DNA of 64,000 nt from Blastocatellia bacterium (GTDB lineage Bacteria > Acidobacteriota > Blastocatellia > UBA7656). The stretch's first letter is position 1. Each line of letters opens with the position of its first letter. The stretch covers positions 1 to 64,000 of the forward strand of contig CAVXWP010000006.1 of NCBI GenBank assembly GCA_963765495.1, written 5' to 3'. Positions 42,379 to 43,450 of the stretch are shown one piece after another. The translations under genes and the position numbers were made by a program. The notes beneath the pieces are model-generated. The model saw only the letters and a program-made list of their open reading frames with translations, did not search any database and was not told the DNA's origin.

Positions 42379-42408
42379 TTGACACTTTCGCGTAAGGTCT
42401 GGTAACTT
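42379..42408 (+). promoter_or_regulatory. tRNA promoter
   Basis: TTGACA-N18-TAACTT with extended TG. Confidence 0.55.
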
Positions 42409-42468
42409 ACCCATTCCTTCGAAAGAAGGATTTTTCCTGAGTAGCTCAATGGCAGAGCATCCGGCTGT

Positions 42469-43361
42469 AAAGGATGAATGATCTTTGCAGCTTCCACAGG
42501 TGACTGTGGTTGAAAAACTGGGTGAATTCAAGGAAGCCTACGCTGGCTACGGTCAGTAGGGTAACCCTGAGCGAAGCCTGCTAAAAGGTAGTGCGCTTTT
42601 GAGTGCGCTGTCGGCAGGAACGTGCAGAGACTGAGATTGTGTTGCAATGAAAGTTCTACCATTGGTAGGAACGGAACTCAGATCTGCTATTGTTGGAATG
42701 GTGGCTGGAGACGCCGGGATCAGGAAGCAAAAAGGCTGCCGATCTGTGAGTCTCCGGATTACTCATGCTGAGAAACAGAGAGAGTATCTTGAATACAAAA
42801 GAGATATCCTCCAAAATCTGTTTAAGGGATGGGAAATTCCTATCAGACCAATCAATAATAGCGGATATCCAGGAGTCAGACTGGAAACTCGCAATCATCC
42901 CAAACTAAGAGCCATTTATAAATGGTTTTATAGCGAGGGAAAAAAGCGGTTTTCGAGGCAAATTCTCAACTATCTAACACCCATCGGGGTTGCTATTTGG
43001 TATATGGATGATGGTTCTCTCTCTTACAAGAAAAGAGAGGGAAAGGTTCACGGAAGAGAGGTCCATCTCAATACTTACTGCTCATTGGAGGAGGCTGAAG
43101 TTATCCAAGCCTACTTCAAGGAAGTATGGGATGTCTCTTGGACGGTGATTCCAAATAAAGGGCTTTTTCGGCTTAGGATGGGATCGAACGGGGCTAAAAA
43201 GTTCTTTATGATCATCAGTCCGTACATAATTCCGATGATGAGGTACAAAATAGATTTGGGGTACGTAAAGCAACACGATCAAAGCGCCCGGCAACTTTTT
43301 TCAATGCCAGAAGAGAGTTGATGAGATAGTCCGCCCCTATGTGAAAACATAGGATCAAGCG
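42469..43361 (+). ncRNA. group I self-splicing intron, 893 nt (IC3-like)
   Basis: exon ends in U and intron ends in G; P1 GCTGT/GCAGC with a U-G pair; P GAATTCAAGGAA, Q AACCCTGAGC, R GCAGAGACT, S GAGATAGTCC. Confidence 0.92.
42647..43321 (+). CDS. intron-encoded two-motif LAGLIDADG homing endonuclease
   Basis: AIVGMVAGDAG and GVAIWYMDDGS; located between R and S (P8 loop). Confidence 0.9.
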   Translation: MKVLPLVGTELRSAIVGMVAGDAGIRKQKGCRSVSLRITHAEKQREYLEYKRDILQNLFKGWEIPIRPINNSGYPGVRLETRNHPKLRAIYKWFYSEGKKRFSRQILNYLTPIGVAIWYMDDGSLSYKKREGKVHGREVHLNTYCSLEEAEVIQAYFKEVWDVSWTVIPNKGLFRLRMGSNGAKKFFMIISPYIIPMMRYKIDLGYVKQHDQSARQLFSMPEES

Positions 43362-43415
43362 TAACCGGAGGGTTGTAGGTTCGAGTCCTACCTCAGGAGC
43401 CATTTTTTAGGAGCA

Positions 43416-43450
43416 GAGGGTCATCATTTCGATGGCCCTTTTGCTTTCTT
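43416..43450 (+). terminator. terminator after tRNA-Asn
   Basis: AGGGTCATC/GATGGCCCT stem plus T-rich tail. Confidence 0.7.

Follow-up and report, generated by a model that had tools for sequence, protein, structure and literature searches.

A predicted group I intron with a LAGLIDADG endonuclease gene in P7.1 splits the tRNA-Asn(GUU) gene of a Blastocatellia bacterium

The window, as we call the whole 64,000-nt stretch of DNA that was analyzed, carries a tRNA-Asn(GUU) gene in two pieces, separated by a predicted group I intron that holds an intact endonuclease gene. All features are on the forward (+) strand:

42435..42468, +, tRNA-Asn 5' exon: tRNA positions 1–35, ending C32 U33 G34 U35 (...CUGU)
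42469..43361, +, group I intron: 893 nt, omega-G = 43361
42464..42491, +, P1: 42464–42472 with 42483–42491, 9 bp; at the 5' splice site, U35 (42468) forms a wobble pair with G42487
42478..42486, +, HNH-leader stretch: 9 nt common to the leader of kin HNH ORFs
42494..42633, +, 5' half of the core: P2 (GUGA loop), P4, P5 (UACG loop) and P6/6a/6b
42518–42524 and 42627–42633, +, P3 5' strand and P7 5' strand, respectively, with A42628 bulged
42635..43280, +, P7.1: 11-bp stem, 42635–42645 with 43270–43280; endonuclease gene in the loop
42647..43321, +, endonuclease ORF: 224 aa, intact, double-motif LAGLIDADG_2 (I-SceI-like)
43285..43361, +, 3' half of the core: P3' 43285–43291, P8 43292–43320, P7' 43327–43332
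43333–34 with 43359–60, +, P9.0, followed by P9 at 43336–43353 (GAAA loop) and omega-G 43361
43362..43402, +, tRNA-Asn 3' exon: U36 to CCA, starting UAAC and ending GCCA; discriminator G at 43399
43415..43441, +, terminator-like hairpin 3' of the tRNA: 11 bp and a T tail; weak consensus match only

Joined together, the two exons make a 75-nt tRNA with a full cloverleaf, including the CCA end, which ARAGORN scored at 123.7 as Asn(GUU). With introns allowed, ARAGORN called a tRNA-Asn with an 893-nt intron at the locus. The default ARAGORN run and Rfam at its gathering score made no tRNA or intron call at 42435–43402, so the expectation in the preliminary description that standard annotation would miss this tRNA held for these two settings and failed for ARAGORN with introns allowed. 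For comparison, there were 17 non-intron kin loci, 2 of which remained unparsed; the other 15 were empty (intronless) tRNA-Asn alleles that all had a CUGUUAA loop, and 8 of these 15 were letter-identical to the window's spliced product.

The splice register was scanned by scoring 192 exon joins (12 × 16). Two of the 192 gave a top-scoring tRNA with a U before the intron and a G at its end: 42468/43361, yielding Asn(GUU), and 42466/43359, yielding Thr(CGU). Splicing at the latter, after U33 (the classical 33/34 site, fMet.2Ug type), would make the gene a tRNA-Thr; this, or a dead intron with Asn supplied by an unassembled gene, for which the 17 contigs of the genome leave room, we consider very improbable. 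Despite the U and G at its boundaries and an equal ARAGORN score, the Thr site was rejected. In P1, U35 (42468) wobbles with G42487, whereas U33 pairs with an A and has no such wobble, and P9.0 forms two Watson–Crick pairs with omega-G 43361 but none with 43359. The P9.0 pairs covary over 46 alleles (GC/GC in 31, AC/GU in 14 and GC/GU in 1), and in the Thr register the anticodon would flip between CGU and UGU from allele to allele (31 versus 15 of the 46). It was because of the P1 wobble, the P9.0 pairing, its covariation and the Asn loop in the intronless kin alleles that we excluded the Thr(CGU) register; in addition, a good tRNA-Thr(CGU) is present elsewhere in the genome, and a tRNA-Asn nowhere.

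Judged by its sequence, the locus is a tRNA-Asn(GUU) gene split at 35/36 by a predicted group I intron. The preliminary description had proposed as much, and both of its core claims stood: the exons rebuild tRNA-Asn(GUU), as seen from the cloverleaf, the ARAGORN score and the identical intronless alleles, and an intron of this type lies at 35/36, as seen from the P1 U·G pair, omega-G, the P9.0 covariation and the core helices. Neither the rival Thr(CGU) register nor the endonuclease gene in the intron had figured in it. The group I ribozyme of the pre-tRNA would remove itself in a two-step, guanosine-dependent reaction, with cuts after U35 and after G43361. This part of the mechanism, comprising the splicing (presumably self-splicing) and the identity of the tRNA, is almost certainly right.

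The product of splicing would be the only tRNA-Asn(GUU) of the cell. In the genome (G000; 7.3 Mb, 97.9% complete), default ARAGORN found 49 tRNA genes, none of them Asn. Four sub-threshold "Asn" calls (scores 91–96) were not tRNA-like, and a BLAST search of the genome gave no second copy of the exons, intron or ORF. The check for another tRNA-Asn proposed in the preliminary description therefore supported the view that the genome has no other credible gene of this kind and that the split gene is the only one. Since no second tRNA-Asn was found, Asn decoding most likely depends on splicing. One sequencing run (share 0.06, contigs, probably from DNA) contained pieces of relatives and no exon joint, and bears on splicing in neither direction.

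Two other tRNA genes of this genome are split as well. In the sole tRNA-Arg(UCU) (G000:C1:1074195-1074867, minus strand; L284:296-968), an insert of 597 nt follows U34; it ends in G and contains a 174-codon HNH_3 frame (E 2e-11), with no match to the Rfam group I model. The sole tRNA-Leu(UAA) (G000:C12:68327-68642; L285:328-643) is split by a 229-nt intron with no ORF and no P7.1, in which group I-like core motifs could be recognized by eye; default ARAGORN and Rfam miss it. Three single-copy tRNAs of this genome (Asn, Arg-UCU and Leu-UAA) escape default annotation. tRNA-Ala(CGC) was absent at the default ARAGORN threshold, and a second, low-scoring tRNA-Pro(CGG) lies at 5579–5652 of the window. 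A sigma-70 scan returned no promoter above threshold; at 42379–42407, upstream of the split tRNA-Asn gene, there is a TTGACA with a weak second hexamer 17–18 nt further on, below the threshold of the scan, and kin have a better promoter match at the corresponding site. The terminator scan gave 3 sites like the one 3' of the tRNA, against 1.7 expected.

All helices from P1 to P9 were found in the intron of the window, including the P3–P9 core with its P3/P7 pseudoknot and G-binding site, with one A·C mismatch in P4 and a G·U pair closing P7. The Rfam Intron_gpI model (RF00028) matched 42459–43353 with an E value of 5e-7; the search with group I models suggested in the preliminary description thus yielded a match, but at 35 bits it fell short of the 50 that Rfam sets as gathering score. 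A kin locus, L096, reached 62 bits with the same model. When the structure was laid over 25 short kin alleles, 98.3% of the cells were paired, with two-sided changes in 21 of the 58 pairs, and the U·G wobble in P1 was invariant (25/25). None of 500 shuffles equaled this covariation, and slid controls gave 32–40%, a comparison in which the structure is favored by having been drawn from one of the 25 tested alleles. We take the presence of P7.1 to be a feature of subgroup IA; the letters of P, Q, R and S look IC3-like in our estimation.

The endonuclease gene occupies the loop of P7.1, which takes the place of a 33–39-nt P7.1 in alleles lacking this cassette. The ORF starts one base past the 5' strand of P7.1 and, over its final 52 nt, shares sequence with P7.1', P3' and P8, the kind of overlap between ORF and core that PMC3073962 terms core creep. 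A placement of the ORF in P8 was rejected: it lies between P7 and P3'. With its start region within the P7.1 stem, the ORF would probably be translated at a low level while the ribozyme is folded, and the ribosome-binding-like motif of the window's ORF is weaker than that of its kin.

The predicted protein matched the Pfam LAGLIDADG_2 family (E 5e-34), with both motifs present. Its best sequence matches in the PDB were to I-SceI (E 6e-11 to 2e-10), and residues D22, D122, K100 and K201 align with D44, D145, K122 and K223 of I-SceI, which we take to be catalytic. The predicted structure (pLDDT 92) was closest in fold to I-WcaI and I-SceI, with TM scores of 0.71–0.73. Proteins with 88% and 80% identity occur in the same intron in Blastocatellia and Pyrinomonadaceae records. 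The dN/dS ratio was 0.08–0.15 in all 10 pairs of 5 ORFs, indicating purifying selection. Such selection would also be compatible with a protein that is mainly a maturase, aiding the folding or splicing of an essential intron, with DNA cutting secondary or lost, and the A·C mismatch in the window's P4 would fit this as well. This explanation is unlikely, considering that the gene is absent from 41 of the 50 alleles described below, which must still splice, that all 96 relatives in the alignment retain the two aspartates of the active site, and that dS values point to recent horizontal spread. Most likely, the I-SceI-like, monomeric LAGLIDADG protein encoded in P7.1 is the homing endonuclease of the intron.

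Of 401 genomes in the class, 46 contained the intron core; 14 of these belong to the family of the window (including G000) and 23, 8 and 1 to three others. One of these 46 alleles is cut by a contig end; the 45 complete ones and L034 made up the 46 alleles analyzed. A phylum sample, again of 401 genomes, gave matches to the intron DNA in 3 of them, each a member of the class, and, for the protein, matches at 33% identity in 2 further genomes. Of the 46 alleles, 23 had neither an ORF nor a remnant, 13 had an open HNH frame in L1, 4 had an HNH remnant only, 5 had the LAGLIDADG gene in P7.1 (one of them, in G033, also with an HNH remnant) and 1 (G210) had a single-motif LAGLIDADG gene in P4. There are thus three endonuclease families at three positions, with an open endonuclease frame in 19 of the 46 alleles and two intact enzymes in none. 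HNH remnants were present in 5 of the 46 alleles, and partial LAGLIDADG remnants in none of 41 cassette-less alleles. Three of the 13 HNH frames look frameshifted or shortened; the median dN/dS of the HNH genes was 0.10 (12 of 13 frames, 17 of 66 pairs). The gene in G210 (L096:1152-1846, minus strand) encodes 136 aa and interrupts the 5' strand of P4, where it is carried in a stem of its own.

It appears that three endonucleases boarded the intron lineage at different loops. The letters at 42478–42486 of the window precede the HNH start in G010, G271, G378 and G311, and G033 has the same 9-nt leader piece together with the last HNH codons. We infer that 42478–42486 is the scar of an HNH gene that was lost in the common ancestor of the window and G033; in the window's lineage, the HNH gene in L1 would have been deleted and the LAGLIDADG cassette would have taken over. 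The P7.1 LAGLIDADG cassette and the turnover of three enzymes in one class set this locus apart, while the split tRNA-Asn itself belongs to a known class. Within a single bacterial class there is an unusually complete natural series that runs from an empty gene and a bare intron to introns with an HNH gene or its remnants and on to two different LAGLIDADG genes, each in another loop, and this series makes it testable how endonuclease genes enter introns and move between them, and what they cut.

In the reading that we prefer, the enzyme would make its cut close to the anticodon of tRNA-Asn genes that lack the intron, and the intron would be copied into them during repair. In favor of this, empty target alleles are frequent among kin. 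The LAGLIDADG cassette looks younger than its hosts: between the window and G033, the ORF had a dS of 0.39, compared with 1.08 in rpoB and 1.31 in gyrB (two host genes only). G006, a congener of G033, has an empty allele, with a host dS to G033 of 0.52–0.60. As the window and G033 have the L1 scar in common, it seems that the intron moved as a unit at a time when it had no functional HNH enzyme, which favors homing into the tRNA gene. The alpha/beta hydrolase gene upstream in the window is also a direct neighbor of the tRNA gene in kin, namely at 10 of 29 loci (6 with empty alleles, a synteny that likewise supports this reading), and the DNA downstream of the tRNA shows no synteny among kin. 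G006, G018 and G021 each gave two matches to an intronless tRNA-Asn 3' exon. The gyrB frames of L114 (G006) and L115/L117 (G192) are 1264 and 1419 aa long, compared to ~820 in kin, which suggests inteins.

Alternatively, the LAGLIDADG enzyme might target the intron itself, with its cut in introns that lack the cassette, where the R motif ends and P7.1 starts; it would then be a parasite of introns spread by HNH enzymes or otherwise, and splicing would be unchanged. We regard this as possible but doubtful. Several properties of the cassette point in this direction. The P7.1 span is all-or-none, being either 33–39 or 651–652 nt in 46 of 46 alleles. In an enlarged set of 50, to which four metagenome alleles had been added, the dinucleotide that follows the R motif sets all 9 cassette alleles apart from all 41 others. 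The cassette sits on several intron backbones, near local cassette-less cores: the nearest core was cassette-less for 7 of the 9 LAGLIDADG alleles, for 5 of them at 92–96%, and the ORF of L127 groups with those of G246/L128 (99/99), whereas its core does not. Homing of the whole intron should keep the LAGLIDADG-bearing cores together, yet a clade of these cores was rejected by the AU test both for 5 of 46 alleles (p 3e-67) and for 9 of 50 (p 5e-81), in a core alignment of only ~220 columns. This result, the cassette-less nearest cores and the lack of LAGLIDADG remnants in the 41 cassette-less alleles, when HNH genes do leave remnants, count against the preferred explanation. Family monophyly of the intron cores was rejected for f1 (p 0.008) and not for f4 (0.28) or f5 (0.07), with L034 left out; the rejections for f1, f4 and f5 obtained with L034, which has no known family, were dropped, only that of f1 standing without it.

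Other results in the same alleles are harder to reconcile with an enzyme that targets introns. An intact HNH gene was found in 0 of the 9 LAGLIDADG alleles, against 13 of the 41 others, where ~2.9 would be expected if the two were independent (the alleles themselves are not). That the two never occur together intact favors tRNA homing, as it is expected if both enzymes serve one target. Apart from L127, the identities of ORF and core are broadly parallel among the 9 cassette alleles, which goes against separate movement of the cassette and also fits long co-descent. P3 pairing alone would favor the exchange of P7.1 only. The motifs on either side of the cassette (R upstream; P3', P8 and S downstream) are the best conserved of the core, so that recombination could swap it between backbones. 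A comparison of the flanks of the cassette with the tRNA exon junction for target mimicry gave no likeness above that of shuffles (best case 69/1000).

To this we could add a wider family of 192 loci, retrieved with one peptide pattern as the best 80 per collection and including duplicates. In 125 of the 192 (99 distinct loci), the R motif lies just upstream and S downstream of the enzyme gene, and in 78 of the 99, a stem of at least 7 bp opens right after R and closes after the ORF, a count that comes without a computed chance level; both figures refer to the best 80 per collection. These arrangements argue for intron targeting, as does the variety of host genes, called from 63 of 86 downstream ORFs compared with PHROGs. 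Among the matches listed, they include several capsid families or major head proteins, terminase, ribonucleotide reductase, DNA polymerase, a primase-helicase, ThyX, a helicase and tRNA-Leu, -Met and -Asn, and the nearest non-tRNA relative among them, L130 (61%), lies in P7.1 of a capsid-gene intron. The phage collection gave 24 matching records, all below 60% identity. Automated classifiers of the P3/P8 position were noisy: the first put 26 of 160 after the ORF, with 35 unclear and 99 not callable; the second put 82 of 125 after and 18 before, with 25 ties; and the third put 60 of 99 after and 13 before, with 26 unclear and L128 miscalled.

Near-identical enzymes occur in different host genes (91% for L153 in tRNA-Leu and L220 in tRNA-Asn, 94% for L250/L260 and 85% for L216/L227, in a comparison of flanks that covered pairs above ~66% identity). 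Enzymes of 85–94% identity at unrelated exon sites support intron targeting and count against the preferred reading, as do, for the latter, the A·C mismatch in P4 and the weaker ribosome-binding-like motif. In the first of these pairs, the LAGLIDADG genes (L153:1286-2211 in tRNA-Leu(UAA) and L220:1321-2243 in tRNA-Asn(GUU) on a viral contig) are flanked by the same stem, and P3, P8 and the exons differ. Further tRNA genes split by 850–1240-nt introns with relatives of the enzyme were seen in L135, L138, L158, L208, L152 and L146 (Met-CAU, Leu-UAA and two uncertain).

The predicted DNA-binding strands vary widely over 87 distant relatives, the top residue mostly reaching 20–50%. Variation of this kind is expected for different exon targets, and the lack of conservation goes against a common target in the intron. 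Conversely, substitutions were hardly more concentrated in these strands for pairs at different sites (ratio 1.19) than for pairs at the same site (1.03), which would fit an intron target; these pairs are not independent, and L160/L227 may be one gene family. Seven phage-type introns (L141, L156, L161, L175, L227, L238 and L242) have a second endonuclease frame, of the HNH, GIY-YIG, NUMOD-bearing or LAGLIDADG_1 type, just upstream of the P7.1 LAGLIDADG gene, an arrangement in line with intron targeting. They represent only 7 of the 54 upstream ORFs compared (89 loci had enough upstream DNA, 55 of these an ORF), and this low share was counted for tRNA homing. A direct repeat around the cassette, picked out by eye in 6 loci, was rejected family-wide (2 of 78 versus 4.0 expected), which likewise speaks against insertion into introns.

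If the intron were the target, the P7.1 enzyme might be the first example of a LAGLIDADG subfamily, widespread in bacteria and phages, whose members home into group I introns beside the R motif of the guanosine-binding helix, an idea that we put forward only tentatively. An intron-seeking cassette of this kind would spread among tRNA, capsid, terminase, polymerase and helicase introns regardless of exon, and an essential tRNA of Blastocatellia would host a nested cycle, in which HNH spreads the intron and LAGLIDADG spreads within it. We nevertheless favor homing into the tRNA gene because three attempts to detect an intron target common to the family gave negative or weak results, in addition to the movement of the intron without HNH and the separate occurrence of the two enzymes noted above. 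To the mechanism as a whole, consisting of splicing, homing into empty tRNA-Asn alleles and shuffling of the cassette, we assign a probability of about 55%. An enzyme that cuts the tRNA gene would be a tRNA-Asn-specific LAGLIDADG meganuclease, of which kind we found none in print. Our literature search gave no LAGLIDADG gene in a tRNA-Asn intron or in P7.1, and subscription papers and supplements could hold one; the accessible text of PMC3984707, PMC11835236, PMC3073962, PMC4964425, PMC11878797 and bioRxiv 2020.03.05.979740 mentions no such gene.

I-SceI and I-WcaI, the closest relatives in structure, share with the window's enzyme the LAGLIDADG_2 domain with both motifs, the aligned acidic and lysine residues and the fold. 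They belong to mitochondrial introns, whereas the enzyme described here belongs to a bacterial tRNA intron, and since they are only 22–24% identical to it, their specificity is not transferable. Introns at 35/36 of tRNA-Asn and tRNA-Asp in Patescibacteria are reportedly missed by standard annotation and self-splicing in vitro; they are said to be rare outside this group and mostly without endonucleases. The window's intron has the same site and tRNA-Asn in common with them but resides in a 7.3-Mb Blastocatellia genome, in a class where 46 of 401 genomes have the intron and an endonuclease frame is open in 19 of 46 alleles. The title of Nakagawa et al. 2025 (bioRxiv 10.1101/2025.07.03.662931; cited in PMC12641178) announces a new site of insertion in tRNAs of Patescibacteria. 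Williams 2020 had already expanded the bacterial intron-split tRNAs to 21 classes, 17 of them new, so the preliminary description overrated the novelty of the site. In that scheme, the U at −1, the G at omega, the P1 wobble and loop site 4 all apply to the window, and by its rule the label would be Asn.4Ug. The longest introns there (922 and 1817 bp) possibly hold protein genes; its text names no endonuclease family or loop, in contrast to the LAGLIDADG gene in P7.1 of the window.

According to Table 1 of PMC3073962, the Synechocystis tRNA-fMet intron (Bonocora & Shub 2001) has a PD-(D/E)xK endonuclease in P1, and none of the 5 examples in that table is a P7.1 insertion. Like the window's intron, the Synechocystis one interrupts the anticodon region of a tRNA and can carry an endonuclease gene that extends into the core, and the kin form with HNH in L1 has the same layout; the window differs in the tRNA, the site, the enzyme family (LAGLIDADG_2) and the loop (P7.1). 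The mono- and biorfic introns nad1-i4 and cox1-i7 of Podospora, in which, according to PMC4964425, an optional ORF moves into an ORF-less intron allele, resemble the window's cassette in that the ORF is mobile separately from the ribozyme core. The Podospora cases concern single fungal introns; in the present one, a single enzyme subfamily would occupy an identical core position in the introns of many bacterial and phage genes.
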